From Candidatus Sumerlaeota bacterium (GTDB lineage Bacteria > Sumerlaeota > Sumerlaeia > SLMS01 > JAHLLQ01): a stretch of DNA of 64,000 nucleotides. The notes under the pieces are model-generated. The model was not told the origin of the DNA and did not search any database. It saw only the letters and a program-made list of their open reading frames with translations. Position 1 is the first letter of the stretch. Each line of letters begins with the position of its first letter. This document shows positions 1-16,662 of the stretch, one piece after another. The stretch lies in assembly GCA_030156535.1 (NCBI GenBank), contig JASGMJ010000009.1, positions 5,237-69,236 of the forward strand. The letters run 5' to 3'. The translations under genes and the position numbers were made by a program.

Positions 1-2
1 AC

Positions 3-932
3 CATGATGACAGAGGGCAGAGAGTCTTCGGCGCCCTTCCTCTCGGCCTATACTGCAAGTGGGAAGACACGACAGAGTTCTTCTCGCCCCTTGCCAGCTT
101 TCGCGACGCGAAGGACGGCGATTCCTTCCTGAATCTCGGAATGTTTCTCTTCGGTCATATGCGATCGGGGACGTTCTCCAGCTGGTGGGTTCTTGGCAGC
201 ATCCTCGGCACGGCGGCAGACACGGAGAAGGGGCGGGAATGGCACGTCTTTCCGCTCTTCTATCACTCGACCTTCCCCGCGAACAAGACGCGCTGGCGTT
301 CGCTGCTCGGGTTGTTGGCATGGAGTGAGACGGACAAGCGCACCGAGCAGGAGGTCGCGGACGGGTTGGCATCGAGGATGCAGGAGTATCAGCAGACGCT
401 CATGGCTTCGCGGGATGCGCAGGAGACGACGGGAACACTCGCCACGGCATTGCCGGCCCCCGTGTCTCCACGTACCATGTCGATGAGTGAAGACCTCGTC
501 AAACAACGCTATCTTCTTGGCCTTGGAGGGGTGAGCGACAAGTTGGAGTTGAGTGGGAAACTTGATGCCGAGGGCGAACTCACGGAGACAGACACCCACC
601 GTACCAAGAGCTCCTGGCTCTTCCCCGTGTGGTACCAGCGTGACATTGTCGGAGGCCGTCATCGTGCCTGTGTTCTCGGCCGACTCTACGATGAAGTCTC
701 GGAGCCGCACGTCGATGGTGGAACCTACCACCGCCAGCGGGTTCTTTGGCGCGTATACCATCGCGAGCGCCTGGAAGACCACACCAGCATCGACGTGTTC
801 CCCTTCCTCGCGTTCGACACCGCCCCCGATTTGCGCAAGTATTCCTTTGCGGGTGGCTTGGCCGAATACAGCAGGAAGGACGGCAAGCGCCGCATCAAAC
901 TGTTGTGGATTCCGATCGGACTGGGGGACTAG
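3..932 (+). CDS. Hypothetical repeat-containing protein, 5' partial. The frame is open from the window edge and shows recurring W-x-x-F/Y-P-hydrophobic motifs.
   Basis: The frame of ORF 141..932 has no stop back to nt 3. Repeated motifs WHVFPLFYHSTF / WLFPVWYQRD / VLWRVYHRER / IDVFPFLAFDT occur, and the upstream in-frame translation (YCKWEDTTEFFSPLASF) continues the repeat. Confidence 0.5.
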   Translation, partial: HDDRGQRVFGALPLGLYCKWEDTTEFFSPLASFRDAKDGDSFLNLGMFLFGHMRSGTFSSWWVLGSILGTAADTEKGREWHVFPLFYHSTFPANKTRWRSLLGLLAWSETDKRTEQEVADGLASRMQEYQQTLMASRDAQETTGTLATALPAPVSPRTMSMSEDLVKQRYLLGLGGVSDKLELSGKLDAEGELTETDTHRTKSSWLFPVWYQRDIVGGRHRACVLGRLYDEVSEPHVDGGTYHRQRVLWRVYHRERLEDHTSIDVFPFLAFDTAPDLRKYSFAGGLAEYSRKDGKRRIKLLWIPIGLGD

Positions 933-989
933 GTGCGCCCGCAACGCTGGAAAGCAAATGCGTCGGGGAGCGGCTTCGGTTTGCTTCCG

Positions 990-2408
990 CTATTCCACGA
1001 TCCAGCTCTCTGCCGTTTTCTCTGCGGCCAGCACGCCGATTCCCGTCCCCAGGATGTTCTCTCCGCGGCTGGCATCCCACGTGCCCTGATTCGCCATACG
1101 CACGGAATACTCAGGGCGGTCGCGCAGGGAGACGGCGTTGTCCGGCAGCCACAGAACCCATCGCGCTCCCTGGGCGGCATCCACTTCACGTGGCAACGTG
1201 AACAAGCCGTCGAGCACGATCTCGCCGTCCTCTGCCAGCCAACGCCTCGGGTCCGCGTCCTCCATCGGCCACTCGGCAAGCACCTCCGTCCCCAATATCA
1301 GCCGCAGCACCACGGGCCGCGGCTGGTACATCGGTGCGAAGCCCACGTTGCGCACCGTTACGGAAGCCGCGAAGGTTTCGCCACCCCGCACTTCATCCGG
1401 CAACTGCGCCCGTACCAACTCGAACCGGTAGCCCAGCCGCCGCTCGATTTCCGCATAGCACCCGCCCGTCTGCCATTCCGCGATCACGTCGGGGTGGTAG
1501 ACGCGGTTGAGGTACGTCGCGTGAAAGCGCGCCAGTTCGGCCAAGGCATTCGGGCACGTGGTGTACTCCGAGGGCGCACAGGTTTCCCCGCCCATCGGCA
1601 CAAAGCGCGTGTCGGCCGCGAGGAACGCCTTTTGTTCTTCCACGCTTGATGACTCGTAGGTCCCCTGATCCGTTGAGGAGGAAAGAAAGCAGTCGTTGTG
1701 GTGGCCGATCCGCGCGACGGGCGCGCTCGTGAACGCCGTTTCCGCCGTCACCTGCTCACCGGGAAAGAGCGCCTCGTTTCCGAATGCGGGATCCTTGAAC
1801 CACGGACGCCGCACCTGCACGAAGGCATTCGAGGGAAGGAATGCCAGCAGCGCCGAAATCACCGCACGCCGGTTCTCCACCGTCGGCAGATTGTAGCGCA
1901 CTTCGACGCCTTCGGGTCCAAAGTTCGTGGTGCTGTGCCACTCGCCCCATGCACCGATCACGCCCGCCTGCACGAAGGCGATCACGTCGCTGTTGCGCGC
2001 CAGCATCGGCTGCAACTGCAACAGGTGCGCCTGCAGGCGCGAGAAGGACACGTCGTCCTCGTAGCCGTCATTGTAGACGATTCGGACAACCGCCTTCACG
2101 CCCGCATCCCGCACGCGCTCCAGTCCGGATTCCAGATTGTCCAGATGAAGCGGCGAAATCGACGTCGTGCGGAACGCCGAAAGATCCACCCGCGTGTAGA
2201 CCAGCGTCACCCCCTGCGAGCGCATTGCCGCGTAGTTCGTCGTCAGGTCGCTGAGCGAGCCATTGTCGGCGCCGACGAGATAGAAACCGCGCTCGGGATT
2301 CAGGATCGCCGCCGTGGTGGGGGAGTACGTGTAGTCTTGAATTTCGGCTTGGCCTGCCATGGGGAGAACGACCGCCAGAAGGAGAATGATGGTGCGGGCA
2401 AGCGGCAT
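990..2408 (-). CDS. Secreted DUF4832/DUF4874-like (glycoside-hydrolase-like) protein. The true start is the internal Met of the listed 828-aa ORF.
   Basis: Signal peptide MPLARTIILLLAVVLPMAGQA follows a CAT (ATG) at 2406-2408. The upstream part of the long ORF is antisense to a clear epimerase gene. The protein body looks like a TIM-barrel (WGEWH, HNDCF). Confidence 0.6.
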   Translation of the reverse strand: MPLARTIILLLAVVLPMAGQAEIQDYTYSPTTAAILNPERGFYLVGADNGSLSDLTTNYAAMRSQGVTLVYTRVDLSAFRTTSISPLHLDNLESGLERVRDAGVKAVVRIVYNDGYEDDVSFSRLQAHLLQLQPMLARNSDVIAFVQAGVIGAWGEWHSTTNFGPEGVEVRYNLPTVENRRAVISALLAFLPSNAFVQVRRPWFKDPAFGNEALFPGEQVTAETAFTSAPVARIGHHNDCFLSSSTDQGTYESSSVEEQKAFLAADTRFVPMGGETCAPSEYTTCPNALAELARFHATYLNRVYHPDVIAEWQTGGCYAEIERRLGYRFELVRAQLPDEVRGGETFAASVTVRNVGFAPMYQPRPVVLRLILGTEVLAEWPMEDADPRRWLAEDGEIVLDGLFTLPREVDAAQGARWVLWLPDNAVSLRDRPEYSVRMANQGTWDASRGENILGTGIGVLAAEKTAESWIVE

Positions 2409-2555
2409 CGTTGAGTTTATCCCGTCGTTTTGGTACAGCATTAAATAAAATAATGAATCTGGGGCAACCGAATTGTCGATTCTTCTCTGGCGCCCCGGCC
2501 GCCACCCCGGCACGAAAGCTCCGAATTCCTTTCCTTTTCCCCGGAGCTTTCCTCC
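2409..2555. promoter_or_regulatory. Divergent intergenic region containing an AT-rich stretch (ttaaataaaataatgaatc) in an otherwise GC-rich context.
   Basis: The divergent starts of the 990..2408(-) and 2556..3479(+) genes flank it, and it is locally AT-rich. Confidence 0.3.
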
Positions 2556-3479
2556 ATGTCCACACCCACCAGCGTTCTCATCACCGGCGGCGCAGGCTTC
2601 ATCGGCAGTCATCTTGCCCGCGCCTGGGTGGCGCGCGGCGCGCGCGTCGTTGTGCTTGATTCCCTGCGCACCGGGCACCGCGCGAATCTGGCCGGTGTTG
2701 ACTGCCAGTTTGTCGAGGGGTCCGTCGAAGACGCCGCCCTCGTTCGCCGCTGCGCCGAAGGCATCGACGTGATCCACCATCTGGCCGCGCTGGTCTCCGT
2801 GCCCGAGTCGATGGAAAAGCCCGCGCTCACAGAAGCCATCAACGTTCTTGGTACCCTGAACGTTCTCGAAGCCGCCCGTGCCGCCCGTGTCGGCAAGGTC
2901 GTCTTCTCCTCCACGTCGGCCGTTTACGGCATGATCGACCGCCCCATGCATGCCGAGACAGATCTTCCCGCGCCCGCCAGTCCCTACGCCATTACGAAGC
3001 TCGCGGGCGAGCACTACATGCACCTGTATGCCGAGGCGTTCGGCGTTCCCACAATCTGCTTCCGCTACTTCAACGTCTACGGCCCGCGCCAGGATCCCAA
3101 ATCGCCCTACGCCGCCGCCGTCGCGATCTTCGCCGATCTTGCGCGCGCCGGCAAGCCACTGCGCGTGTACGACGACGGCGAGCAGACGCGCGACTTCGTC
3201 CATGTCAACGACGTCGTCGCCGCGAACCTTCTCGGTGCCGAAACGGGGAGCGGCGTCTTCAACGTCGCCTGCGGCACGCGCATCACCGTCAACGATCTCG
3301 CACGAAAGATCATTGCCACGGCGGGCTCTTCCTCCCAGATTGAATACGCTCCGCCGCGCCCGGGCGACATCCGCCATTCCCGGGGCGATTCCACCAAGCT
3401 GCGCGCGCTGGGATGGCAGCCCGCCGTGACGCTTGACGAGGGGTTGCAGCTTACGTTGAACGAGGGAGGCCCCCAATGA
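2556..3479 (+). CDS. NAD-dependent epimerase/dehydratase (SDR; UDP-sugar 4-epimerase-like)
   Basis: N-terminal Rossmann motif LITGGAGFIGSHL and the SAVYG...YAITK catalytic YxxxK motif. Confidence 0.85.
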   Translation: MSTPTSVLITGGAGFIGSHLARAWVARGARVVVLDSLRTGHRANLAGVDCQFVEGSVEDAALVRRCAEGIDVIHHLAALVSVPESMEKPALTEAINVLGTLNVLEAARAARVGKVVFSSTSAVYGMIDRPMHAETDLPAPASPYAITKLAGEHYMHLYAEAFGVPTICFRYFNVYGPRQDPKSPYAAAVAIFADLARAGKPLRVYDDGEQTRDFVHVNDVVAANLLGAETGSGVFNVACGTRITVNDLARKIIATAGSSSQIEYAPPRPGDIRHSRGDSTKLRALGWQPAVTLDEGLQLTLNEGGPQ

Positions 3480-4462
3480 TCGAGGATCGGGAAATCGTTC
3501 AGCTCGAGGCGACGGGCGAACGGGTCAAGCTCCTGGTCCGCCGCGGCGGCAACGCCGGCGAGGCCAACCGCCTGCGCTCCTTTCTCGGGCACAAGGGCTC
3601 GCCCTACACCGAGCACGTGAACGACTTCCTCAAGAACGGCAGCCGTGGCCTGTACGAAGGCCTCGAATGGCGCTTCTACCTCGCCGAGATCGATGGCGTC
3701 TACGCTGCGAACATCTGCACCTGGGAGTACAAGGGCGTCGGCCTGCTCGGGCACGTCTTCACGCATCCCGTCCATCGCCGCAAAGGCCTCGCGCGCCTTC
3801 TCATGGATTTCCTCCACGACGATTTCGAGCAGCGCGGCGGGCACACCATGCAGCTCAACACCCGGCCGGATTCCTACCAGCAGAACTTCTACGCCAGCCT
3901 CGGATACGAACGTCTCGCCGCCGCGCCCGGCTCCATGTTCCGGCTTTTTGGCGAGGACCACACCGAGCCCGACAGCGACGTCGCCCCGGTTGTCTTTGAG
4001 TGGCGCCACTGGCCCACGCTGCACCAGTCGCTGCTGATGGAAGGGCGCCCTTTCGTGCGCTCCGTCGGCATGGGGATTTACGGACCGGGATCCGCCGAGG
4101 GGCGGCTGCTCGACGTCTTCTATCGCGGTGGAATCTCGCGGCACCGCGAATCGCTTTGCGTGCTGGAGGCCGCCGCCTCGCGCGTCGTCGGTTGTGCCAG
4201 CATCCTCCCCGATCGCCTCTGGGGGGGGAAGGGGACGCACAAAGTTCTCGACGTCTATGTCGAGTCCTTTCACCGCCGGTGCACGGGCGACCTGGTGGCC
4301 ACAGTCCTCGAGAAGGCCACAGGTCCACTCCTCTGGTACCGCGAGGTGGAGGAGGACGAGACCGTGAATCCCGCGGCCTTCGGGTTCGAGCCCGCGGGCT
4401 ACCTGCCGGAGTCCGGCGACGGCCGGGACATTGAAATCTGGCAGTTGGCCGCCGGGAAATAA
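3476..4462 (+). CDS. GNAT-family N-acetyltransferase (possibly tandem GNAT)
   Basis: Acetyl-CoA pocket motif HVFTHPVHRRKGLARLLM. It is coupled to the epimerase by an ATGA overlap. Confidence 0.55.
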   Translation: MIEDREIVQLEATGERVKLLVRRGGNAGEANRLRSFLGHKGSPYTEHVNDFLKNGSRGLYEGLEWRFYLAEIDGVYAANICTWEYKGVGLLGHVFTHPVHRRKGLARLLMDFLHDDFEQRGGHTMQLNTRPDSYQQNFYASLGYERLAAAPGSMFRLFGEDHTEPDSDVAPVVFEWRHWPTLHQSLLMEGRPFVRSVGMGIYGPGSAEGRLLDVFYRGGISRHRESLCVLEAAASRVVGCASILPDRLWGGKGTHKVLDVYVESFHRRCTGDLVATVLEKATGPLLWYREVEEDETVNPAAFGFEPAGYLPESGDGRDIEIWQLAAGK

Positions 4463-4567
4463 CACTATTTTATCTGCTTAAATTTAATGCCAAACTAAAT
4501 CCTTGCGCCCCTGCCCTCTCCCGTGCCAGCGAGAGGCATCCTTCATCTTCGCAACCGGGTTGATCCC

Positions 4568-5845
4568 ATGTCTCGCCATCCTCTCTTGCTTCTCCTTTTC
4601 GTGCTTCTTCTCTCCGCCTGCGGGGAGAGCACTTCCACGTCGGAAACCACGTTGCGCTACTCGCGCTGGGGCCTTCCTGAGGAAATCGAAGCCGAGCGCG
4701 AACTGCTCAAGCAATTCGAGGCCGCCAATCCCGGCATTCGCGTCATCGTCGAATACAGCTCGTGGTCCGAGTACTGGAACAAGCTGCAAGCGCAGATGGC
4801 GGCCGGCTCCGCGCCCGACGTTTTCCTGATGGGCGGAACCTATGTGCATGACTACGCGGAGCGCGGCCAGCTCGAGAATCTCAACGCTCTTGCCGCTGCC
4901 GATGAGTCCTTCTCGCTCGACGATTATTTCGCCCGCACCAACGAAGTCTACACGTTCGACGATGGCCTTTGGGCACTGCCGCGCGACTGCAACACACTGG
5001 CCGTCTACTACAACAAGGCGATCTTCGACGAGGCGGGTGTTCCATATCCCGAAGAGGGCTGGACGTGGGACGACCTTGTTGAGAAAGCCCGCGCCACCAC
5101 CATCGACCGCGACAACGACGGCCGCAACGAGACGTGGGGGTTCCTCGCCAGCTTCGAGTCCCTGGAAGTCAACTGGGGCACGTGGGTCTGGCAGAACGGC
5201 GGAGCGATTCTGAACGACGACCGCACGAAGTGCCTGCTCGACCAGCCCGAAGCGGTCGAGGCGCTGCGGTTCTACACCGGGCTCGTGCTCGACGAGAAGG
5301 TCTCCCCGGACACGGCGGAGGCGTCACGCTTCGGCAGCAACATGTTCCTCACGGGCACGCTCGCGATGTCCATGGAGGGCTCCTGGCGTCTGCGCGCCGC
5401 TTCGCGCATCGAGGACTTCGAGTGGGGCATCGCGCCCCTTCCGCGTCACAAGCAGGCCGTTGCTCCTGTCAATGGACTCGGGAATTCCATCTACGCCAAG
5501 TCGAAGAACAAGGAAGCCGCCTGGCGTCTCGTCCGTTTTCTCGCGAGCGAAACGTACCAGGCCAATCTCGCCAAGTCCGGCACCTCGATTCCCGCGCTGA
5601 AGAGTGTTGCCGAGTCCGACGTCTATCTCGATGGAAACCCGCCGGGAAAGGAACTCTTCCTCCGCCAGATCGACTCGGGCCGTACGCTTCCGTTCACCAC
5701 GGGTTTTGCAAAGTGGGAAGACGCGATTCGCGGCCAGCTTGAACTCGTCTGGCTTGGCCGCAAGGACATCGACACAGCCCTGCGCGACGCCACTGTTCAG
5801 GTGGACGCGATCCTCGCCGGCAATGCGGCGGGGGAGAAGCAGTGA
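4568..5845 (+). CDS. Carbohydrate ABC transporter substrate-binding lipoprotein (family 1 SBP). An alternative upstream start exists at 4523.
   Basis: Lipobox LLLSAC-G after a hydrophobic h-region. Sugar-SBP-like body (TLAVYYNKAIFDEAG, WGIAPLP). Confidence 0.8.
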   Translation: MSRHPLLLLLFVLLLSACGESTSTSETTLRYSRWGLPEEIEAERELLKQFEAANPGIRVIVEYSSWSEYWNKLQAQMAAGSAPDVFLMGGTYVHDYAERGQLENLNALAAADESFSLDDYFARTNEVYTFDDGLWALPRDCNTLAVYYNKAIFDEAGVPYPEEGWTWDDLVEKARATTIDRDNDGRNETWGFLASFESLEVNWGTWVWQNGGAILNDDRTKCLLDQPEAVEALRFYTGLVLDEKVSPDTAEASRFGSNMFLTGTLAMSMEGSWRLRAASRIEDFEWGIAPLPRHKQAVAPVNGLGNSIYAKSKNKEAAWRLVRFLASETYQANLAKSGTSIPALKSVAESDVYLDGNPPGKELFLRQIDSGRTLPFTTGFAKWEDAIRGQLELVWLGRKDIDTALRDATVQVDAILAGNAAGEKQ

Positions 5846-6807
5846 CGGAGGGCCCCGTGCCAGCGCATCAGGCCGTTGCTCCACAGCCCGTTCCCGGGCG
5901 CCGCCGTGGTTCCCTGGCGCGCACCGAGCGTTTCTGGGGGCTCCTGCTCAGTTCCCCCTACATTCTTGGCCTGCTGTTCTTCGCCGCCGGTCCCATCCTG
6001 TTCTCCTGGATCATCGGGTTCTTTGAATGGGACAGCCTGACGCCGCCGCGCTTCGTTGCCCTGGCGAACTGGCAACGCCTCTTCACCGATCCGCTCTTTC
6101 ACAAGGCGCTCTTCAACACGCTCTATTTCGTCCTCGGCAGCGTCCCCCCCGGCGTCTTGCTCTCGCTGCTGCTGGCGATGGCGGTGAACCGCGGCATCAA
6201 GGGCATCACGATCTTCCGCACGATTTACTTCACCCCCGTTGTCACGTCCGTTGTGGCCGTTGCCCTTGTGTGGACGTGGATCTACGACACGAACGTCGGC
6301 ATCCTGAATCTGCTGATCGAGCGCACGTTCAAGCTCTTTGGCGCGCGTCCGCCCGAGCCCATCGCCTGGCTCAACGATCCCCGTTTCGCCATGCCCGCCA
6401 TCATCGCCATGAGCATCTGGAAGGGGCTCGGCTACAACATGGTGATCTTCCTGGCGGCACTGCAGGACGTTCCCACCCAGCTCTACGAAGCCGCCGAGCT
6501 CGATGGCGCCGGGCGCCTTGGCAAGTTCCGGCACGTCACGCTTCCCATGATTTCTCCTGTCACGTTCTTCGTTCTCGCGGTTTCCCTGATCGGCGCGTTC
6601 CAGGTCTTCGACCAGATTTACATCATGGCGAAGGATGGCCGCCCCGCCAACTCCACGCTGACGATTGTCTACCACCTGTACAACCACGCGTTCCGGTATC
6701 TGGAAATGGGCTATGCGAGCACCATTGGCGCGGCGCTGTTCCTGATGATCTTCGCGGTCACGCTCTTCCAGCTCTGGGCGCAGAAACGGTGGGTACACTA
6801 CCAATGA
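5842..6807 (+). CDS. Carbohydrate ABC transporter permease (MalF/UgpA-like)
   Basis: Multi-TM protein with the EAA-like loop EAAELDGAG.. and an ATGA overlap with the SBP gene. Confidence 0.85.
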   Translation: MTEGPVPAHQAVAPQPVPGRRRGSLARTERFWGLLLSSPYILGLLFFAAGPILFSWIIGFFEWDSLTPPRFVALANWQRLFTDPLFHKALFNTLYFVLGSVPPGVLLSLLLAMAVNRGIKGITIFRTIYFTPVVTSVVAVALVWTWIYDTNVGILNLLIERTFKLFGARPPEPIAWLNDPRFAMPAIIAMSIWKGLGYNMVIFLAALQDVPTQLYEAAELDGAGRLGKFRHVTLPMISPVTFFVLAVSLIGAFQVFDQIYIMAKDGRPANSTLTIVYHLYNHAFRYLEMGYASTIGAALFLMIFAVTLFQLWAQKRWVHYQ

Positions 6808-7649
6808 GCACCAGGCGCCTTTCTCCCCGTGCGGTTTCCGCGGCGGCGTTGCAGTACCTGCTGCTCGGCCTGCTGGCGTTCCTCATGGTCTTCCCCTTTC
6901 TGTGGATGGCGAGCACCTCGCTCAAGTCTTTCGGCGAGGCCTTCGCCTATCCGCCCACGCTGCTCCCGCGCGCCTGGCGCTGGAGCAACTACGGCGAAAT
7001 CTTCAACGCCATGCCGATGACGCGCTTCCTTCTCAACAGCTGCAAGATCACCGGCCTCACCGTGCTCGGTATGCTGCTCTCCTGCTCCATGGCCGCCTTT
7101 GCACTGGCGCGTCTTGAATTTCCCGGCAAGCGACTGCTGTTCGCCAGCACCCTCGCCACGCTCATGGTTCCGTACCAGGTCACGCTGATCCCCGTCTTCA
7201 TTCTGTTCCAGTATCTCGGCTGGAAGGACACGCACTACCCGCTGTGGGTTCCGGCGTTCTTCGGCGGCGCGTTTGGCGTTTTCCTTCTCCGCCAGTTTTT
7301 CATCGGCGTCCCCAAGGACCTCTATGAAGCCGCGCTCGTGGACGGCAGCACCCCCGGCGGCATCCTCTTCCGGATTTATCTCCCTCTCGCCAAGCCCGCC
7401 CTGACCACGCTCGGCGTCTTCACGTTCATGGCTTCCTGGAATGACCTGTTGAATCCGCTCATCTACATCGACACGCTGGAGAAAATGCCGCTGACGGCCG
7501 GGCTGAGTTTCCTCCAGACCCAGTATGGCAGCGACTGGCCCCTGATGATGGCGGGCGCCATGATCTCCATCCTCCCGATCCTCGCGATCTTCTTCGTGGC
7601 CCAGCGCGCCTTCATTCAAGGCATTGCCACCGCCGGGCTGAAAGGTTGA
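6804..7649 (+). CDS. Carbohydrate ABC transporter permease (MalG/UgpE-like)
   Basis: MSTRRLSPRAV..FPFLWM... and the EAA loop YEAALVDGSTP. It starts at the internal ATG 6804 of the long 6027 ORF and overlaps the previous stop by 4 nt. Confidence 0.85.
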   Translation: MSTRRLSPRAVSAAALQYLLLGLLAFLMVFPFLWMASTSLKSFGEAFAYPPTLLPRAWRWSNYGEIFNAMPMTRFLLNSCKITGLTVLGMLLSCSMAAFALARLEFPGKRLLFASTLATLMVPYQVTLIPVFILFQYLGWKDTHYPLWVPAFFGGAFGVFLLRQFFIGVPKDLYEAALVDGSTPGGILFRIYLPLAKPALTTLGVFTFMASWNDLLNPLIYIDTLEKMPLTAGLSFLQTQYGSDWPLMMAGAMISILPILAIFFVAQRAFIQGIATAGLKG

Positions 7650-7736
7650 GACAGAACAAGCGGGTTTGCCGCATTGTTTTCCGGGATCGTGAATCAATCC
7701 GGCTGACAACCGTGCCCCGCCCGTAGGAAAACAAAA

Positions 7737-9017
7737 GTGCGACACCCCTCCAGACGACCAGCCACTGAACCTTTGGAAACGGACCCCATGACTCCCGCAG
7801 CGAAAATTCCCACCCGCCCCGATCTCGTTGTCGTTCCCAACAGTTCCACGCCCGCCGATCGATCCATCGAGAAGCGCCGCCTGCGCAAGCACTCCGTCCT
7901 CAACGTCGTCCGCGCCCACGGCCCGGTCTCCCGCGCCGGGATTTCCAAAATTTCGAACTTCAACCTCCCCAGCGTCTCCGCTCTCGTCGATGAACTCGTG
8001 GAAGAGGGCCTCGTGCTCGAAGAGGAGGCCCAGCGCGTTCCCCGCGGCCGGCGCCCCATCCCCGTCCACTTGAACGAGAGCGCCGCATCGATCCTCGGCA
8101 TCGACATCGGCAAGAGTTCCACGATCGGGCTTCTTCTCAACCTCGGGGGCACGCTCATCACCCGCGTCGAGAAAAGAACCCCGTCGCTCTCCACGCCCAA
8201 GGCACACGAGGAATGGGTTGCGAAGATCGCCGCTCAGGTCTTTGCCGAGACTGGCGACAAGACTCCCCCCCTCGCCGGCATTGGCATCGGTCTTCCGGGG
8301 CTCATCGGCAAGTCCAGTTCAGGCACGGAAACCCACAACATTGCCACGCATCTGGCCACTTCCCTCGAAGCCATTTACGGCGTGTGCACCATTGTGGAAA
8401 ACGACGCGCGCATGATGGCGCTCGGTTGCATGCTCTTCGGCCAGGGGAAAGCTCTCTCCAGCTTCGCTGTCCTCAACATCGGCTTCGGTCTCGGCATGGG
8501 CCTCGTGCTCGACGGACGCCTCTTCCAGGGCACCCAGGGGTTCGGTGGCGAGATTGGGCACATCCCTCTCGGCGAGTCCGGCGTCCCCTGCTATTGCGGC
8601 AAGAGCGGCTGCCTGGAGAACATCGTTTCCGGTTCCGGCCTCGTTCGCCTGGCCAAGGCCAAGGGCCTTGCCGTCAGCGACGCCGCCGAAGTGGCCGAAC
8701 TTGCCCGCAAGGGCGACCGCAAGGCACTCGCGATCTTCCGCACTTTCTCCGAACACCTCGGCCGCACTGCCGCCGTCGTGATGAACCTCTACGATCCCGA
8801 GGCCGTCATCCTCAGTGGCCGCGTTTGCCGGGCAGGCGACCTGTTCATCGATGGGGCTCGCGCCGAACTCGAACGCCACGTCCTCGCTCCGATTGCCCGG
8901 CACAGCGAACTTCTCGTCAGCACCCTCGACGTCGACCTGGGTCCGATTGGTGCCGCCGCCGCTGTTCTCCACCGCATCTTTTTCTCCAGTCACGTCAGCA
9001 TCGACGAGGTTATCTGA
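7737..9017 (+). CDS. ROK-family transcriptional regulator / sugar kinase-like (NagC/XylR type)
   Basis: N-terminal wHTH (VLNVVRAHGPVSRAGISK), the ROK glycine-rich motifs LGIDIGKSS and GIGIGLPG, and a CxCGxxGC zinc motif (PCYCGKSGCLE). Confidence 0.8.
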   Translation: MRHPSRRPATEPLETDPMTPAAKIPTRPDLVVVPNSSTPADRSIEKRRLRKHSVLNVVRAHGPVSRAGISKISNFNLPSVSALVDELVEEGLVLEEEAQRVPRGRRPIPVHLNESAASILGIDIGKSSTIGLLLNLGGTLITRVEKRTPSLSTPKAHEEWVAKIAAQVFAETGDKTPPLAGIGIGLPGLIGKSSSGTETHNIATHLATSLEAIYGVCTIVENDARMMALGCMLFGQGKALSSFAVLNIGFGLGMGLVLDGRLFQGTQGFGGEIGHIPLGESGVPCYCGKSGCLENIVSGSGLVRLAKAKGLAVSDAAEVAELARKGDRKALAIFRTFSEHLGRTAAVVMNLYDPEAVILSGRVCRAGDLFIDGARAELERHVLAPIARHSELLVSTLDVDLGPIGAAAAVLHRIFFSSHVSIDEVI

Positions 9018-9143
9018 CCCGTTGCGGCCCCGGGCCGCGCCGGGGCGCCGATTTCGCCGTTGACAATCCCCCGGCCAGCCCCCCACACTCCGTTTATTAC
9101 AGGACTAAATTTAATACAAAAGCAACGAACCGGACAACGCCTC

Positions 9144-10241
9144 ATGCATCGCCTCGCCATTATCGGATTCGGAGACATGGGCAGCGCCCACGCTGCCGGC
9201 TTCAACGCCCTCCCCTCCTGCGAGATCGTCGCCACCGTCGAGCCTGACGCCGCACGCCTCGCCTATCGCGACGTCCCCTGGAAGAACGGCGCCCCTCCGA
9301 ACTTTGCCGACACGGCCTCCATGCTCCGCGCCATCAAGCCGGATGCCTGCGTCGTCGCCGTTCCCGACCTCCAGCACCGCGCGGTCTCCGAACTCGTTCT
9401 CGATGCCGGGTGCGACTTGTTCCTCGAAAAGCCCATCACCACCACGCTGCCCGACGCCGACGCCATTATCGCTCGTGCGCGCGAACGCGGGCGGCTTCTC
9501 CAGATCGGTCTCGTCTACCGCTACTCGAATCTTTACCGCCGCATGGCCGAGCGCGCCGCCGAGCCGGGCCATCCCGTCCGCCTCATGTGGTGCAAGGAGT
9601 TGCGCCAGTGTTTTCCCCAGCGCCCCTGGTTCTACTCGCAGCATGCAACAGGTGGCACGCTGGTGGAGAAGGACTGCCATCACTTCGATCTCTTCAACTG
9701 GATGATTGCCAGCCGCCCCGTCCGCGTCTTCGCAACGGGTGGCCAGCACGTGTGGAAGTCCGGCGCCGTCATTGACTGCAATTACTGCCCCGACGAACCC
9801 CGCGCCATCGAGGAGATCGACACCATCGATCACGCGCTCGTCACGATTGACTACGAGAACGGCGCGCGTGCCTGCCTGATCCTGTGCATGTACCTGCGTC
9901 CGGAGAACGTGATGCCCGAGGGGCTCGAAGTCGGCGCCATCGCCCTGAGTGGCAGGCAGATGATCGCGTATCGCGACGAGCGCCTTGGCGTTGGCGGCGT
10001 TGGCGATCCGCTGGCCTTCGAGCGGCTCGACATGTGGGCCGACAACCAGGGCTTCGGGCATATCGGCTGTCAGCAGCAGCGCATCGAGTTCCTCGAATGC
10101 CTGGAACAGCGCCGCGAGCCGTTTGCCAACGGCGAGGTCGGCCGCGATTCCCTTCTCGTCGCTCTCGCCGCCGAACGCTCCATCCGCGAAGAACGTCCCA
10201 TCGACCTCAAGGAGTTTGCCGCATGTCCGACCTGCGCATAA
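9144..10241 (+). CDS. Gfo/Idh/MocA-family NAD(P)-dependent oxidoreductase
   Basis: N-terminal Rossmann LAIIGFGDMGSAHA and an EKP motif (LFLEKPITTT). Confidence 0.8.
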   Translation: MHRLAIIGFGDMGSAHAAGFNALPSCEIVATVEPDAARLAYRDVPWKNGAPPNFADTASMLRAIKPDACVVAVPDLQHRAVSELVLDAGCDLFLEKPITTTLPDADAIIARARERGRLLQIGLVYRYSNLYRRMAERAAEPGHPVRLMWCKELRQCFPQRPWFYSQHATGGTLVEKDCHHFDLFNWMIASRPVRVFATGGQHVWKSGAVIDCNYCPDEPRAIEEIDTIDHALVTIDYENGARACLILCMYLRPENVMPEGLEVGAIALSGRQMIAYRDERLGVGGVGDPLAFERLDMWADNQGFGHIGCQQQRIEFLECLEQRREPFANGEVGRDSLLVALAAERSIREERPIDLKEFAACPTCA

Positions 10242-11323
10242 GCTCCACGGAAGCAGCGGCCGCGATTGAAACATCCGCTCCCGGGCGCATTTGCCTTTTC
10301 GGCGAGCACCAGGACTACCTTGGCCTGCCCGTGATTGCCGCCGGAATCGACCTGCGTGTTTCCATCGTGGCGCGTCCGCGCGCGGCCTCTCCCTTTCGTG
10401 TGGCCATGCCCGACATCCACAAGGTCGTGGAGTTCGACCCCAACAAGGAAAACACGTACTCCCACGACCGCGACTACCTCATTGCCGCCGCCAACGTTCT
10501 TCGCCGCGAAGGCGTCGAGTGGCCCTGCGGATACGACGTCGAAGTCACTAGCACGATTCCGATCAACAGCGGCGCCTCCAGTTCCTCCGCGCTCCAGGTG
10601 GCGTGGTGCGCGTTCCTGCTCGCTGCCGCCGGAGACGTCCGCGCAGCCGATCCCCGCACTGCCGCGCGCTATGCGCATCTTTCCGAGGTTGTGGAGTTCG
10701 GCTCGCCCGGCGGCATGATGGATCACTATTCGACGGCGCTCGGCGGAATCATCTGGCTCGATTGCGCCACGCACACGCCCGCGCCGCTCCCCGCCTGGGC
10801 ATCGGAGTACGTCCTCGTGGATTCCGGCATTCCCAAGGACACGAATGGCGTTCTCGGAAGCGTTCGCGCCCGCGCCGAGAGCATTGACGTCGATTTCCAT
10901 GCTCTCAACGGCGCCGAGGAATGGCCGGCCATCCATGACTCCCTTCCTCCCGATCGCCGGGGCGTCTTCCTCGCCAACGCCCGCAACAAGCAACTAACCC
11001 TGGAGGCGCGTGGCGTGATCGAGAACACCACGGATGCAGTACGCCTGGGCCGTCTCCTGTCCGAGCATCACGTGCAGCTCTCGCGCAATCTCGGTGTGTC
11101 TCTTCCTGCTATCGACGACCTTCTTGCCCGCGGCATTGCTGCGGGAGCACTCGGCGGAAAGATCAACGGTTCCGGCGGGGGAGGATCGCTTTTCCTCTTC
11201 TGTCCGGGGCGCTCGAATGAAATCGCTGCCCTGTATCAGGGCATGGGCCTGCGTGCCTTTGCCGTCGCTGTTTCAAGCGGCCTCGGACTTCTCATCGACG
11301 GAAAGGAAAGAGTCTGCTCATGA
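10223..11323 (+). CDS. GHMP-family sugar kinase (galactokinase/GalNAc-kinase/glucuronokinase-like)
   Basis: GHMP motif PINSGASSSSAL and a C-terminal GGKINGSGGGGS motif. It overlaps the oxidoreductase gene. Confidence 0.8.
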   Translation: MSDLRISSTEAAAAIETSAPGRICLFGEHQDYLGLPVIAAGIDLRVSIVARPRAASPFRVAMPDIHKVVEFDPNKENTYSHDRDYLIAAANVLRREGVEWPCGYDVEVTSTIPINSGASSSSALQVAWCAFLLAAAGDVRAADPRTAARYAHLSEVVEFGSPGGMMDHYSTALGGIIWLDCATHTPAPLPAWASEYVLVDSGIPKDTNGVLGSVRARAESIDVDFHALNGAEEWPAIHDSLPPDRRGVFLANARNKQLTLEARGVIENTTDAVRLGRLLSEHHVQLSRNLGVSLPAIDDLLARGIAAGALGGKINGSGGGGSLFLFCPGRSNEIAALYQGMGLRAFAVAVSSGLGLLIDGKERVCS

Positions 11324-12738
11324 ACAGGATTGCTCCCTCGCTTGCCACAGCGGCGCTTCTCGCGCTCCCCTCAATGATGATGGGCGGAGGCGTCTCCTGG
11401 TCGATGCAGGACACGCTCGACGCGTCTTCCTCTGCCCGGACGCTTGCCTACTTCCGCTCCGATGACTCCGTGCTTTGTCTGGAAGTCGAGGAGGATGTCT
11501 GGAGCGATCCCCGTGTTGCCGACGCAACGCGCCCCTACAAGTGCGTATTTGTTGACGTGAAGTCACCGGCTGCGGCCAGTACGGCGCTCAGGCAAGGCGT
11601 TTACGTCGTGCCCACGACGCTTGTTCTTGAAGGCGGAAGAGAAGTCGGGCGCCTGGAACGCCTTGCCGAACGCGAGGCCACGCTGCGCTTTCTCGAGAAA
11701 CCGGAGACGGTTCTCGCCCAGGCTCCCGCCTCTGCTCCCTTGCCCGCGCAGGGCACCCGGACGGGAAACTCCGAGCCAGTCTTCATGGAAGATTCCGCGG
11801 CTGATTACTCCGTCCCTGAATTGAACCTGATTGGGTTGGCTGCCGTTGAACAGGCTGGCCGCATCACCATTCAGATTCGCCTGCAATCGCCGCCCGATGC
11901 TGGCGCGTTGGGGCGCTACAATGTTTACGTGGACGCGGACGACAACGAGGAAACGGGGTTCGCCGATGCCAAGCATCGCGGCGCTGACTATTTGATTCAG
12001 GGGGCCAATTTCTACAAGTTCGGCGGCGCACAGCCCACCGAGTGGAACTGGCTGCCACCAAGGACGATCACCTTCAACCTCAGGGGGCAGGGAGTTTCCT
12101 ACTCCTTTGATCGTTCCATGATCGCCGCGCCTCCCGATTCGCAGATCAACATCTGGTCCTCCACGGTGGACGACTCCTGGAACCCGGTCGACTGGGCGCC
12201 GGACGATCGCCGCCTCACGCTCGGCAAGGGCATTTCCCTCGCCTCCACGCCCCAGCCTGCGGGTCCCGGCTCTCCCCCCGTCGCCGAGGCAACGGTCTTC
12301 AGTGACCCTGCCGGCGATGCCGATCAGCCACAGAACGACTTTGTCAGCGCGGCCGTCAACTACCAGGGCAACGACCTGCGCGTCGTTCTCGAATACAATG
12401 CGACGCCCAATCTCAACGGCCTGCACGTGATGATCGATGCCGATGCCGATCCCACGACAGGATTTGGGGACGGAGTCCGGGACGGCGCCGATTTTATGGT
12501 CGAGGGCGTTTCTCTCTATCGTCATCCGCCCTCGGCGGGAAAGAACTGGCAGTGGGAGAACCCCGTCGAGATTCCCACACGTGTCATCGGAAAGCGCGTC
12601 GAGATTCTCGTCCCCCGCTCTCGCGCGGGCATCGTTTACAACCAGCCGATTCGTCTCTGGTTCTCCACCACCGATGACGCTTGGGCGCCGTCCGACTGGT
12701 TGCCCGACAGCGGCGTCGTGAAGTTCCCCAAGCAGTAG
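11320..12738 (+). CDS. Hypothetical secreted protein with a thioredoxin-fold-like N-terminus (no CxxC) followed by an internal tandem duplication
   Basis: Signal-like N-terminus. Repeated segments GADYLIQGANFYKF..WNW and GADFMVEGVSLYRH..WQW, also ...IWSSTVDDSWNPVDWAPDD vs ...LWFSTTDDAWAPSDWLPD. ATGA coupling to the kinase gene. Confidence 0.55.
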   Translation: MNRIAPSLATAALLALPSMMMGGGVSWSMQDTLDASSSARTLAYFRSDDSVLCLEVEEDVWSDPRVADATRPYKCVFVDVKSPAAASTALRQGVYVVPTTLVLEGGREVGRLERLAEREATLRFLEKPETVLAQAPASAPLPAQGTRTGNSEPVFMEDSAADYSVPELNLIGLAAVEQAGRITIQIRLQSPPDAGALGRYNVYVDADDNEETGFADAKHRGADYLIQGANFYKFGGAQPTEWNWLPPRTITFNLRGQGVSYSFDRSMIAAPPDSQINIWSSTVDDSWNPVDWAPDDRRLTLGKGISLASTPQPAGPGSPPVAEATVFSDPAGDADQPQNDFVSAAVNYQGNDLRVVLEYNATPNLNGLHVMIDADADPTTGFGDGVRDGADFMVEGVSLYRHPPSAGKNWQWENPVEIPTRVIGKRVEILVPRSRAGIVYNQPIRLWFSTTDDAWAPSDWLPDSGVVKFPKQ

Positions 12739-12837
12739 ACGGCAGGATCCGCAGCTCGTTCTTCATCCCACCGTGAGCTTCCCGCTTAGCACGGGCACGC
12801 TGAACACGCGACGCAACCCAATGCTTCTGGACCGATT

Positions 12838-15800
12838 ATGACGCCCCGCCTTCCGCTCATCGCACTCCTGCTCACTTTCACTCCTCCAGTCCTTGCGGCG
12901 TTAACGCTCGATCCAGCGTCGCCGTCGTTCCTTCTTCAGGACGGCGAGCCACTCTCCCGTACGCCTCCACGGATTCTGCTGACCGAGTGGATTCCGACAG
13001 GAGCTTCCGCTGGCGGCGAGTCGGGTGGCGCCTCGCAAGCCCAGGGTGTCGGCTCGATCATCGAAGCGGAAACGCTCGACGCGCGCGTCCTTTCCTGGCG
13101 CGAGGATCCATGGCTAACTCAACCCACTGTGACATCCGATGGCGCGCCCCTGCACTATCATGCTGTCTTTCCACGCGATCTCGTTGTGGACTACGAATGG
13201 CAGCAGCACGGCGACCACCTTCGTGTCACCGGTGCGCTCCGCAATCTCGCCAACGATCCCGCGCGCCGCGAGGTCCCCGTCACGCTTGGCCTCGCTCTCT
13301 TCGTTGAGGACGCTAATCTGGAGTGGCTGCGCGACCATCACGTCAGCGAATCCGCCGCCAGCAACGACGAACGCATCTGGTCGGTTACGACGACGGCCGG
13401 TCCTCTCGGCGCGATGTCGCGCTACCTGCATGGCGCTGTTCGTGGGGACCGCGTGGCTCTCGCTGCAGCCTTTCCCCCCGATCAACCGCGCATCCAGCGC
13501 ATCCGCTGGGACGGCGTCCACCGGGCGCTTGTTATCGAGTTCGACGCCGTCGTTTCCGATGAGACCCTGAAGTTTCCGAACGAAGTCCCTTTCGAATTCT
13601 GGGTCTTCGATTTTCCCCGCGAGTTCGGTGCGCGTGGCGTCCTGCGTTCCTACTACGACCTCGCTCCCGATTCCTTCGCCGCGCGCAGCATGGACCAGGG
13701 GCAGTGGATGCCCTTCACCCAGATCGATCATGTCCAGCGGCCCGAGGACTTTCATTTTCGCTATCACGAGTACCATCCCAACGTTTCCGTGGCCTACAAC
13801 AACGCCAATGACATCGAGTCGCTGGTCTACTGCGAGCCGCCTGTGCAGTACGTGATTCTGCCGCAGGATGCCTTCGAGGACGCGGCACGTCTCCAGCGCA
13901 TCATCGACTCGAAGAGCGATGTCCAGGGCTCGCAGGTGCGTGGCTCGGCCGCATACAGGAGCGACGGCTCGCTCTTCGCCAACTACGTCGTGACCCCTTG
14001 GGCCACGGGCGCGCGCATACCCACCAACGGCGACCCGGAACTGCCGCGCACCGCCGGGAATCCGTACAACAGTTTCGATGCGAACTGGAAACCGTATCTC
14101 GATCTCTATCGCAACCGGGCTGCCGCGCCACCGCAGTCCTGGACCGGTGGTCTCTCCATGGACGGCGTCGTCGGGGCCAGTGGCAGGGCGTTGATGTTGT
14201 CCGCCGGGGGAAGTACGTCACAGCCAATCGAAACAAAATCAGGGACGGAGTCTCTCTCCGGCTCGGTTCGCGCCAAAGGCCGCGAAGGTGCGCACCTGCG
14301 CGTAGCCCTTTCCGGTCTGGAGGGTGACGTACGCGACTTCGCCCTCTCCGCCTCGTTCGCCGAGTATGCCTTCGAGCTTCCCGGCGGCACGGTGCTCCCC
14401 ACTCTTCTCCTTCAAGCCAGTGGTGCCGATGTCTGGATCGACGAAGTGCGTCTCGATGGCGCCTCGCTCGACAACGCCGGTTTCGAGTCGACGACCGCCG
14501 ATCCCGAACAAGTGACCGGCTTGTATCTCGACAGCTTCGAGGGGTGGGATTCCAAGGACATCAACTTCCGCCGCGAGCATTTTGCCACATCGGATTTCCC
14601 GCTGACGTTCGAAGCCACGACCGGCACCACGGGCCAGGTCATCATGATGGGCAATTTCGAACTCGCCGCGGAAGCGCGCCGCCGTTTGCACGAGCGCGGC
14701 GATTTGCTTATGGCCAACACGGCTCTCTATCAATGGGCGTGGTCCGCCCACTACCTTGACGTTCTCGGCATCGAAACGAATTGGGGAACGGGCGAACGAC
14801 TCAGTCCGCCGGACATCGGCATCATGGACTACATTCGCGCGCTCTGCTATCAGAAGCCCTACTGCTATCTGCAGAACGTGGAGTTCGACAAGTTCCGCGG
14901 CGCGAAAGTCGATCAGTACTTCGCACGCTGCCTCCACTACGGATTCTGGCCCGGGTTCTTCAGCCACAACGCGGCGGAGGCCCCGTACTGGGAGAATCCC
15001 GATCTCTACAACTCCGACCGCGCCCTCTTTATCCGCTTCATGCGCCCGCAGGCCGCCGCGACACGCGCGGGATGGGAACCCATCACGCTGGCCGCCGTTG
15101 ACGATGACGAGCTTCTCGTCGAGCGCTGGGGTGGTGCTCCCTATCGCGGCGAGATCCTCGCGCCGGACACCTTCTTCCTCACCGTTTACAATCCCACGGA
15201 TCGACTTCGCCAAGGCAGTCTGACCCTTGATTCGCGCCTCACAGGCGGGCGGCGCTATCTTGCCATCGACGCGCTTGGCGGCAGCCGGGCCACAACCGAT
15301 TCCAGCGGCAACGTCACGCTTGCGCTCGCTCCTCTCGACGTGACGTTGATTCAGTTCGTCGCACGTGACGACGCGGGAACGGAAACAACTCTCGCGGCCG
15401 CGCAGCAGGAACTCCTCGCTCTCGCCGCCAAGTGGCAGCGCCACGGCATGATCGATGCAGAGGCCGTCCAGCAACTCGCCCGTCTTCAGAACACAGAGGC
15501 ACTCGGCGACCGTCTTGGCATCGTCACCTCCTGGCGCACCGGGCATCGCTCGCAACTCGAACCGCTCTATCAGTTCGAATTCGACCGTGCCTTCTCCACA
15601 TGGCGCCTGCTCCTTGCTGCGCGCGACGAGGCGGCATCGGGTCAGTTGTTCGATCCACAAGTGCCTTCGCTCGTGACGCCCGGCGAAGACGCCATCCTTC
15701 GTGTCAGCGAAGCTTTTGCCGATCGTGATCTGATCGCCAGCGCTGAGTTCGCCGGCACTTCCTCCTCGTATCCGCTCACCGACGGCGTTGCCACGATTCC

Positions 15801-16662
15801 CATTCCCGCGTCACTTCCCATTGGCGAGAAAGTGCGCTTCTCCATTCAGCCCCGCGACGCCCTTGCTCCCTCTCCGCATTTCGAGTCACACGCCGAAGTG
15901 CGTCCGGCACTCGGACTCCTTGCGGTTCCGGCATCCCTGACGGCGGGCGATCAGGTTCCGCTTGGCTTTGCCGTTCGTAACAATCTGGCAAGGCCGCAGG
16001 CGGGAACGCTTCGCCTTGTTCTTCCGCCCGAGTGCGGCGCCGTCGCCCCGATGCCTCTTGAACTCTCGGCGGGCGAGGAGCGCTCGATCCTGATTCCCCT
16101 GTCCATCGAGCAACGCCCTGCCGATCTGGATGCCGTGCGCACGGTTCGTATTGAGTGGCACCGCCGCGATTCCGGCGATCTCATTACGCAATCGCTCCCG
16201 CTCACAATTCTCGCGCGCGGCGCCAGCCTTCTGCGCGGGCATGGTATTACGGCGCATGTCGATTCCGCCTACTTCGGCTACGACACGCGTCCCCTGACGG
16301 ATGGCGTCACGGACACCCGCAACGTTGATTGGGTCGATGCCGCCTGGGCCAGCGAGGAAGCCCTCGTACCGCACTGGGTCGAGTTTCGTTTCGCGGAGCC
16401 GCTTCGCATCTCCGAGGTCAAGATCTGGTGGGCGCTCGACAACGGCGTCTACCACACATCCGCGCACCTCTTGATTCAGGGCACCCGGGATGGAGAGACG
16501 TGGCAGACGCTCGTGACGCACACCGATCCGACTCCGTCCCCGGTTTCCACGTATGCGCTCGATGCCACGCCGTTGCGCGGCTTGCGCCTTCTCCAGCCTG
16601 CGGGTGGTGGTGCTCCCACGCGTCCTGGCATCCTCTGGCTCGGCGAGGTGGAGGCGCGATGA
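12838..16662 (+). CDS. Large (1274 aa) secreted hypothetical protein with a C-terminal F5/8-type-C (discoidin / CBM32-like) domain. Putative glycan-binding or glycan-degrading.
   Basis: Signal peptide MTPRLPLIALLLTFTPPVLAAL. C-terminus WVEFRFAEPLRISEVKIWWALDNG...LIQGTRDGETWQTL is typical of discoidin domains. Confidence 0.6.
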   Translation: MTPRLPLIALLLTFTPPVLAALTLDPASPSFLLQDGEPLSRTPPRILLTEWIPTGASAGGESGGASQAQGVGSIIEAETLDARVLSWREDPWLTQPTVTSDGAPLHYHAVFPRDLVVDYEWQQHGDHLRVTGALRNLANDPARREVPVTLGLALFVEDANLEWLRDHHVSESAASNDERIWSVTTTAGPLGAMSRYLHGAVRGDRVALAAAFPPDQPRIQRIRWDGVHRALVIEFDAVVSDETLKFPNEVPFEFWVFDFPREFGARGVLRSYYDLAPDSFAARSMDQGQWMPFTQIDHVQRPEDFHFRYHEYHPNVSVAYNNANDIESLVYCEPPVQYVILPQDAFEDAARLQRIIDSKSDVQGSQVRGSAAYRSDGSLFANYVVTPWATGARIPTNGDPELPRTAGNPYNSFDANWKPYLDLYRNRAAAPPQSWTGGLSMDGVVGASGRALMLSAGGSTSQPIETKSGTESLSGSVRAKGREGAHLRVALSGLEGDVRDFALSASFAEYAFELPGGTVLPTLLLQASGADVWIDEVRLDGASLDNAGFESTTADPEQVTGLYLDSFEGWDSKDINFRREHFATSDFPLTFEATTGTTGQVIMMGNFELAAEARRRLHERGDLLMANTALYQWAWSAHYLDVLGIETNWGTGERLSPPDIGIMDYIRALCYQKPYCYLQNVEFDKFRGAKVDQYFARCLHYGFWPGFFSHNAAEAPYWENPDLYNSDRALFIRFMRPQAAATRAGWEPITLAAVDDDELLVERWGGAPYRGEILAPDTFFLTVYNPTDRLRQGSLTLDSRLTGGRRYLAIDALGGSRATTDSSGNVTLALAPLDVTLIQFVARDDAGTETTLAAAQQELLALAAKWQRHGMIDAEAVQQLARLQNTEALGDRLGIVTSWRTGHRSQLEPLYQFEFDRAFSTWRLLLAARDEAASGQLFDPQVPSLVTPGEDAILRVSEAFADRDLIASAEFAGTSSSYPLTDGVATIPIPASLPIGEKVRFSIQPRDALAPSPHFESHAEVRPALGLLAVPASLTAGDQVPLGFAVRNNLARPQAGTLRLVLPPECGAVAPMPLELSAGEERSILIPLSIEQRPADLDAVRTVRIEWHRRDSGDLITQSLPLTILARGASLLRGHGITAHVDSAYFGYDTRPLTDGVTDTRNVDWVDAAWASEEALVPHWVEFRFAEPLRISEVKIWWALDNGVYHTSAHLLIQGTRDGETWQTLVTHTDPTPSPVSTYALDATPLRGLRLLQPAGGGAPTRPGILWLGEVEAR

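Follow-up and report, generated by a model that had tools for sequence, protein, structure and literature searches.

A conserved A/T-rich quasi-palindrome as the predicted operator of a ROK-family regulator in a sugar gene cluster of Candidatus Sumerlaeota

The 64,000-nucleotide stretch of Candidatus Sumerlaeota DNA analysed here (the window; contig JASGMJ010000009.1 of assembly GCA_030156535.1) carries a cluster of genes apparently devoted to the use of a sugar (Table 1). An ATP-binding cassette (ABC) transporter operon that includes the gene of a ROK-family transcription factor is followed by an operon for a Gfo/Idh/MocA oxidoreductase and a galactokinase-like kinase. It is preceded by genes for an epimerase and an acetyltransferase, from which a DUF4874/DUF4832 gene diverges. 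An earlier note on this DNA, made from the sequence alone, had drawn attention to an A/T-only decamer, TAAATTTAAT, in front of two operons whose starts flank the ROK gene, and had suggested that it was either a -10 or extended promoter element or an operator bound by the ROK protein. The first of these operons, that of the transporter, probably contains the ROK gene itself. We examined the decamer in the window and the corresponding regions of related gene clusters.

The recurrence of the decamer was confirmed. It has two exact copies in the whole window, at 4479-4488 and 9106-9115, both on the + strand. When one mismatch was allowed on both strands the same two loci gave four matches, each being matched on the - strand as well because the decamer is nearly self-complementary. 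Only 0.26 matches were expected, even with the mismatch, and a count of four was not attained in any of 100 dinucleotide shuffles. The first copy sits in cTTAAATTTAATgc, which runs from 4477 to 4490 and not from 4478, and the G+C content of the window is 61.5%, somewhat below the 65% given earlier. Just ten 10-mer windows across the 64 kb are pure A/T, all of them within 2440-2454, 4478-4488 and 9106-9116. The most A/T-rich spots of the window are thus the two sites of the decamer and a third near 2440-2454, which the earlier note had missed, and every pure-A/T run of 10 nt or more falls within one of the three operator-like sites described below.

Syntenic loci were obtained through exact-protein look-ups of closer homologues, as back-translated scans with the ROK protein gave mostly distant paralogues or members of other phyla. 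Seven such loci (L035, L037, L039, L040, L041, L044 and L045) encode ROK proteins with 55-62% identity to that of the window. Where the contigs are long enough, they share its gene order, epimerase-GNAT-SBP-permease-permease-ROK-...-Gfo-kinase, in which GNAT is the acetyltransferase and SBP the sugar substrate-binding protein. The DUF4874/DUF4832 gene is divergent from the epimerase gene in L035, L037, L039 and L040 as well, and the order of genes in the Gfo/Idh/MocA-kinase operon is kept in the same four loci and in L041. A/T-rich elements are found in the relatives at the same three intergenic positions as in the window: 5' of the epimerase gene, 5' of the SBP gene and 3' of the ROK stop codon.

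The first motif set comprised 21 intergenic regions from the window and these seven loci. Two paralogues (P0017 and P0021, with 50-53% identity and unrelated contexts) were left out. Unconstrained Gibbs sampling found a single motif of 24-28 bp in all 21 regions, carrying 32.7 bits at 24 columns. Constraining the model to a palindrome cost little: the symmetric consensus, ATTTAATTTAAT followed by ATTAAATTAAAT, held 29.6 bits at 24 bp, with TT at -6/-5 and AA at +5/+6. Symmetric models of 22, 24 and 26 bp gave 27.8, 29.6 and 30.1 bits and those of 23, 25 and 27 bp gave 25.4, 25.7 and 26.3 bits, figures that the low-complexity A/T sequence makes unsafe as a guide to a register of 1 bp. Dyad symmetry was also evident in the unconstrained alignment, with its centre between columns 15 and 16. 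Mean complementarity there was 0.545, where permuting the columns gave a null maximum of 0.462 +/- 0.032 (p about 0.013), and 152 of the 273 pairs were complementary where composition would give a fraction of 0.34.

The matrix separated the sites clearly from their background. With the window's genome left out of the matrix, the three best matches in the window were the three sites, at 25.6-27.1 bits, and the next, unrelated match scored 8.2 bits. Leaving out each of the other loci in turn gave the same pattern, three sites in each full locus against a much lower background, and the symmetric matrix scored all other intergenic regions of the window at 9.9 bits or less. The scans covered the 15-kb related loci and 64 kb of the genome, a stretch that holds some 40 genes or more and no fewer than 20 additional intergenic regions. 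The intergenic regions were counted with a rough gene caller, used for this purpose only, that skips some genes and keeps an artefactual open reading frame at 990-3476.

The matrix had already been fixed when two further loci, L046 and L047, were retrieved. Their top two matches (23.4-34.4 bits, with the next at 11.3 or less) lay precisely 5' of the SBP gene and 3' of the ROK gene, as predicted. Matrix scans of low-G+C loci from Bacillota and Bacteroidota returned many A/T-rich matches and were uninformative. The gaps seen on leaving genomes out, the prospective matches and the absence of the element from no fewer than 20 of the window's other intergenic regions all show that this is a conserved, cluster-specific signal and not a box found at most promoters. 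The occurrence upstream of most genes that the earlier note had named as a reason to drop its proposal was therefore not what we found. The decamer it described is real, but the conserved unit is about 24-28 bp long and occurs at three places in the cluster, not two.

The decamer is the arm that best matches the consensus at both sites that contain it. The site in front of the SBP gene (sbp) was the window's top match to the other-genome matrix, at 27.1 bits as the 28-mer 4474-4501, and scored 27.9 bits with the symmetric 24-bp matrix; an orthologous site stands at the same position in nine other loci. The site in front of the oxidoreductase gene (gfo) scored 27.0 bits with its own genome left out (9091-9118) and 27.5 bits with the symmetric matrix, and again nine other loci have orthologous sites, 3' of the ROK stop codon. 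The third site reached 25.6 bits (2427-2454) and 24.2 bits in the same two scans and has counterparts in the same region of L035, L037, L039, L040 and L044. A weaker site of 15.6 bits (symmetric matrix) overlaps the sbp site; L037, L044 and L039 have ATTTTATT in alignment with its left arm, ATTTTAT. The best orientation of the motif relative to the downstream gene is mixed.

All orthologous loci that are long enough have a further gene between the ROK and oxidoreductase genes, encoding a protein with a prepilin-type N-terminal methylation domain, N_methyl (8333-8929 in L035, 8329-8901 in L037, 8338-8928 in L039, 8331-8900 in L040 and 2525-3130 in L041). The window lacks this gene at 9018-9143, and its gfo site directly precedes the oxidoreductase gene.

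The gene for the presumed binder lies between the two decamer sites. Its product is identical to P0001, the protein PWP23_1210 of a Candidatus Sumerlaeota metagenome-assembled genome (MAG); an exact look-up of the 426-residue reading frame came back empty because the deposited protein starts at 7788. The protein has an N-terminal winged helix-turn-helix and a sugar-binding domain, with Pfam matches to ROK (2e-52) and to the MarR_2 helix-turn-helix. Its closest solved relatives, in full-length alignments that span the protein, are the ROK repressors Lmo0178, VC2007 and Mlc. The best NCBIfam scores, 158 for NagC (cut-off 650) and 129 for Mlc (cut-off 530), are far under the equivalog cut-offs, and the protein is therefore neither NagC nor Mlc. 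A glycine/arginine linker with a near-invariant GR pair after the recognition helix forms the wing of ROK proteins (PMC4288165, PMC13482132), and in the Mlc-DNA structure an R-G-R wing enters the minor grooves of the A/T-rich operator arms, near +/-9 to 11 (PMC13482132). The linker and wing are present here (EEEAQRVPRGRRPIPVHLN), with P-R-G-R-R-P invariant, or nearly so, in all aligned orthologues and the helix-turn-helix nearly so.

The window's ROK protein also retains a zinc motif of the form CxCGxxGCxE (CYCGKSGCLE, residues about 262-272, encoded at 8520-8560). The zinc cysteines are replaced in most syntenic orthologues (P0003, P0004, P0006, P0008, P0009, P0015 and P0002), for example by GFLGHPECLQ or GYSECPAALE. 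In repressors of the Mlc type the motif is regarded as important to the structure.

In the orthologous loci the ROK gene begins 2-22 nt after the second permease gene, which makes it probable that the regulator is co-transcribed with the transporter and autoregulated. The corresponding gap in the window, from the second permease gene to the annotated ROK start, is 138 nt long (7650-7787) and contains no operator-like site. It may house an internal promoter or reflect a wrongly placed start codon.

The surroundings of the sites point to candidate promoters. Between the ROK stop codon and the site, TTGAC[AG] occurs in all eight first-set loci although the sequence around it has diverged; the two later loci have TTGCC. 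An nAnnnT hexamer follows after a spacer of 16-19 in four of the eight (null 0.128), and the site starts 0-29 bp downstream of TTGAC[AG]. Judged from these elements, the oxidoreductase operon may start near 9096, which would put the gfo site at about -5 to +20. In the transporter region, GCTTGCG/TTGCR stands within 2-3 nt 3' of the site in all seven first-set loci, and in L046 and L047 too. Six of the seven have nAnnnT after TTGCGY with a spacer of 17-18 (null 0.128), the window itself offering only CAGCGA. The transporter operon would then start near 4539, with the sbp site centred near -50.

Two details of these regions deserve mention. GCTTGCG (4503-4509 in the window, and in the orthologues) is conserved as strongly as the site itself. 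We read it as -35-like, but it may instead belong to the protein-binding site or to the transcription start region; a sigma-54 reading, tried by eye, failed for want of TGGCAC at the required spacing. In L044, two operator-like sites surround TTGACG, one immediately upstream (8235-8258) and the other about 25 bp downstream (8292-8319). Such a layout points to binding that is cooperative, or to a tetramer that loops the DNA.

The same context bears on the start codon of the SBP gene. The earlier note had the two decamers at similar distances from the first start codon, which holds only if GTG 4523 is used (34 nt against 28 nt). That start is disfavoured because transcription probably begins near 4539, because ATG 4568 gives the window a site-to-start spacing of 67 nt, within the 57-72 nt seen in the orthologues, and because a lipoprotein signal peptide opens at ATG 4568. 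With the supported start the decamers are 79 and 28 nt from their genes.

It seems probable, from the sequence comparisons and by analogy with known ROK systems, that the decamer is the best-conserved arm of an A/T-rich quasi-palindrome of about 24 bp that acts as the operator of the cluster's own ROK protein. The predicted regulon is local and sugar-related, with one regulator, three to four putative operator sites and about 13 genes. The operator and regulon proposed in the earlier note thus find comparative support in nine related clusters, in the restriction of the motif to the cluster, in its dyad symmetry and in its likeness to ROK operators. The sites known for ROK repressors are A/T-rich quasi-palindromes, about 23 bp long, that have TT/AA at +/-5,6 (PMC4288165, PMC3553997).

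We picture a ROK dimer, or a dimer of dimers, that would bind the three sites, with the winged helix-turn-helix contacting the DNA and the PRGRRP wings entering the A/T-rich minor grooves of the arms. When the cognate sugar is absent the protein would keep the cluster off, and binding of a sugar or sugar-phosphate of the pathway would release it. Autoregulation would follow from the place of the ROK gene inside the transporter operon. For the oxidoreductase operon, the site may lie where a repressor classically acts by steric hindrance. The mode is less clear for the transporter operon, and could be occlusion of the region contacted by UP elements and the C-terminal domain of the RNA polymerase alpha subunit (alpha-CTD), cooperative binding or activation.

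Several points count against this picture. Single sites are only moderately palindromic, with 4-10 of 12-13 pairs complementary, and the A/T-only sequence, being of low complexity, leaves some doubt over the precise register, over what constitutes a half-site and over whether the repeats are inverted or direct. The best model is even, at 24 bp, where the sites described for NagC, Mlc and the Thermotogae ROK proteins have a central base and a length of 23 bp. A simple repressor would not usually have its site near -50, as is proposed for the transporter promoter. The assignment to the ROK protein rests on co-localisation and family analogy, and an unlinked factor is possible. The source, moreover, is an uncultured MAG, and the binding, expression and transcription-start side of the argument is predicted from sequence.

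Some of these features could instead mark a distinct ROK subfamily, one that would use a single operator type in opposite ways, repressing from -5 to +20 at the oxidoreductase-kinase promoter and activating, or gating a UP-like element, near -50 at its own transporter promoter. It would combine a 24-bp even-centred operator, and with it a dimer geometry unlike that on the 23-bp NagC/Mlc sites, with the loss of the zinc cysteines in most orthologues. We regard this as conceivable but rather unlikely.

It is also unlikely that the sites are operators for a protein encoded elsewhere, for instance a global regulator of carbon use or a nucleoid protein that binds A/T-rich DNA. That the ROK protein binds is deduced here, the scan covered 64 kb of the genome, and xenogeneic silencers and IHF/HU-like proteins typically target A/T-rich stretches of G+C-rich genomes. 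Yet the motif occurs together with a ROK orthologue in 10 of 10 genomes, the window and all nine syntenic loci, and is otherwise absent from the 64-kb window and from the 15-kb loci. In all ten the ROK protein is the sole DNA-binding regulator of the cluster, which encodes no second one. The motif is also of the class published for ROK operators and is matched by the conserved RGR wing (PMC4288165, PMC13482132). The loci of ROK paralogues in related MAGs (L001, L002, L023, L042 and L043) tell a similar story, with either the best matrix match or an A/T palindrome of their own beside the ROK gene. Reading TTCAAT-N-TAAA as an IHF site, which was tried by eye, was rejected as its 3' part mismatches WATCAANNNNTTR.

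Among these paralogue loci, L023 has ACTATTTATTTA-N4-TAAATAAATAGT, with perfect 12-bp arms, at 5497-5524 beside the ROK operon, and L001 has TTTATAAT-N9-ATTATAAA and ATTTAC-N7-GTAAAT, at 2349-2388 and 5824-5847, beside its ROK operon. These hint that the phylum has a family of related operator specificities.

The other proposal of the earlier note, a -10 or extended -10 box of the housekeeping sigma factor that is conspicuous only because the genome is G+C-rich, now appears very improbable. Hexamers in the arms such as TTTAAT and TAAAAT-like sequences do match TATAAT at four to five of six positions, an arm in L035 lies 17 nt after TTGACA, and 28 nt separate the decamer at 9106-9115 from a start codon. 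However, the element has only three matches in 64 kb and is absent from the window's other intergenic regions, its orientation relative to the downstream gene is mixed, and what is conserved is not a hexamer but a unit of 24-28 bp that shows dyad symmetry. Neither a -35 nor a TG stands at the right spacing 5' of the window's decamers, and a simple promoter scan found no + strand sigma-70 match at either decamer site. Pairing TTGACA with the decamer as -35 and -10 was rejected too, as 40-42 bp separate the two in the window and the distance varies between genomes. The position of the element relative to the -35-like hexamers also varies: it lies 0-29 bp 3' of the hexamer after the ROK gene but directly 5' of it in the transporter region. 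A site found on either side of the hexamers fits a trans-acting factor, and does not fit a fixed core element or a UP element.

We likewise give little credence to the A/T blocks being UP elements, contacted by the alpha-CTD at -40 to -60 and needing no dedicated regulator. The block in the transporter region is indeed in UP position, ending 2-3 nt 5' of TTGCGY, and the putative -10 boxes there are weak. The gfo site cannot be explained in the same way, as 9092-9115 is 26 nt 3' of TTGACA and 28 nt from the ATG, which leaves no room for a promoter downstream. The motif also carries position-specific information and dyad symmetry, unlike simple A- or T-tracts, and is limited to one gene cluster.

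A chance recurrence without function, for which it may be said that the decamer has two exact copies only and is not exactly conserved in other genomes, is effectively refuted by the low number of matches expected and by a 24-28-bp motif at orthologous positions in nine other genomes, two of them predicted prospectively.

Table 1. Predicted operator sites, candidate promoter elements and genes of the cluster, in window coordinates
Feature	Position	Strand	Sequence	Remarks
Site sbp	4477-4500	.	CTTAAATTTAAT/GCCAAACTAAAT	Decamer 4479-4488 is the left arm, 10 of 12 consensus positions
Weaker overlapping site	4465-4488	.	CTATTTTATCTGCTTAAATTTAAT	12 bp upstream of the sbp site; decamer is the right arm
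Site gfo	9092-9115	.	GTTTATTACAGG/ACTAAATTTAAT	Decamer 9106-9115 is the right arm, 10 of 12 consensus positions
Third site	2428-2451	.	TTTTGGTACAGC/ATTAAATAAAAT	Divergent region between the DUF4874/DUF4832 and epimerase genes
Candidate -35	9060-9065	+	TTGACA	Gfo/Idh/MocA-kinase operon; candidate -10 CACACT at 9084-9089
Candidate -35	4503-4508	+	TTGCGC	ABC-transporter/ROK operon; begins 2 nt after the sbp site
DUF4874/DUF4832 protein, 472 aa	990-2408	-		Pfam E 6e-58 and 4e-37; divergent putative target of the third site
GalE-like NAD-dependent epimerase	2556-3479	+		3' of the third site
GNAT acetyltransferase	3476-4462	+		3' of the third site
Sugar ABC substrate-binding lipoprotein	4568-5845	+	MSRHPLLLLLFVLLLSACG	Pfam SBP_bac_1; N-terminus, as compared with orthologues
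Permease	5842-6807	+		Pfam BPD_transp_1
Permease	~6804-7649	+		Pfam BPD_transp_1
ROK-family transcription factor	7788-9017	+		Presumed binder; Pfam ROK and MarR_2
Gfo/Idh/MocA oxidoreductase	9144-10241	+		3' of the gfo site
Galactokinase-like GHMP kinase	~10238-11323	+		3' of the gfo site
Conserved 472-aa protein	11320-12738	+		No Pfam or NCBIfam match
1274-aa protein with F5/8 type C domain	12838-16662	+		Last gene of the oxidoreductase-kinase operon

The kinase, epimerase and acetyltransferase suggest, from their annotation, a galactose- or amino-sugar-type substrate. The conserved 472-residue protein that follows the galactokinase-like kinase occupies the slot where a sugar-1-phosphate nucleotidyltransferase might be expected, and has the same position in L035, L037, L040 and L041. 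A literature search on the function of DUF4832 gave nothing usable. The 828-residue reading frame at 990-3476 on the - strand is an artefact of opposite-strand read-through of the epimerase gene, the real gene being the DUF4874/DUF4832 gene at 990-2408. A search of positions 1-17000 against Rfam found no family at threshold, and a riboswitch or leader RNA is therefore not indicated. A hairpin after the ROK gene is no better than in shuffled sequence (z = -0.56), which gives no support to a terminator there.

Sumerlaeota, formerly BRC1, is an uncultured candidate phylum. We know of no transcription factor or promoter that has been characterised in it, and our literature search found no paper on its regulators. 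The operator described here would be the first concrete regulator-operator prediction for the phylum, and it is testable. The operator positions also point to likely promoter elements, a TTGACA-like -35 and a weak nAnnnT -10. The predicted regulon ties the DUF4874/DUF4832 protein, the 472-residue orphan and the 1274-residue F5/8-type-C protein to one sugar pathway, which could guide the assignment of their functions. The value of the finding lies at the level of annotation, and it introduces no new principle.

The closest solved structure to the ROK protein is Lmo0178 of Listeria monocytogenes (PDB 5F7P/5F7Q/5F7R; E = 5e-38, residues 32-398). It has the same architecture of winged helix-turn-helix, linker and ROK domain, including the CxCGxxGCxE zinc motif, but the relationship is only remote. 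A literature search for its operator gave nothing usable.

The operators of NagC and Mlc in E. coli are similar A/T-rich quasi-palindromes of comparable length with TT/AA about 5-6 bp off centre (PMC4288165). Their regulators share the winged helix-turn-helix and the glycine/arginine linker, seen here as the conserved PRGRRP, and their sites too lie at promoters for sugar transport and catabolism. They differ in having 23 bp around a central base, where our best model has 24 bp centred between two base pairs, and a mixed or GC-containing centre, where ours is A/T-rich. Their targets are phosphotransferase system or nag genes, in contrast to the ABC transporter and Leloir-like kinase and epimerase of the present cluster. 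Mlc is released from its operators by sequestration and not by a sugar.

The Thermotogae ROK regulons (XylR, BglR, TreR and others) are arranged in much the same way, with a ROK gene inside a sugar ABC-transporter and catabolic cluster and palindromic A/T-rich sites of about 23 bp 5' of the operons (PMC3553997). They belong to another phylum and differ in sequence motif and gene content. Their sites were first predicted comparatively and then validated by electrophoretic mobility shift assays with sugars (Kazanov et al., PMC3553997), where those in Sumerlaeota are predicted from sequence. One validated Thermotogae site, ATTATTTCCTGCATATAATTAAT, resembles the sites described here (PMC3553997), and the cluster is most likely an ordinary local ROK sugar regulon, newly seen in Sumerlaeota.

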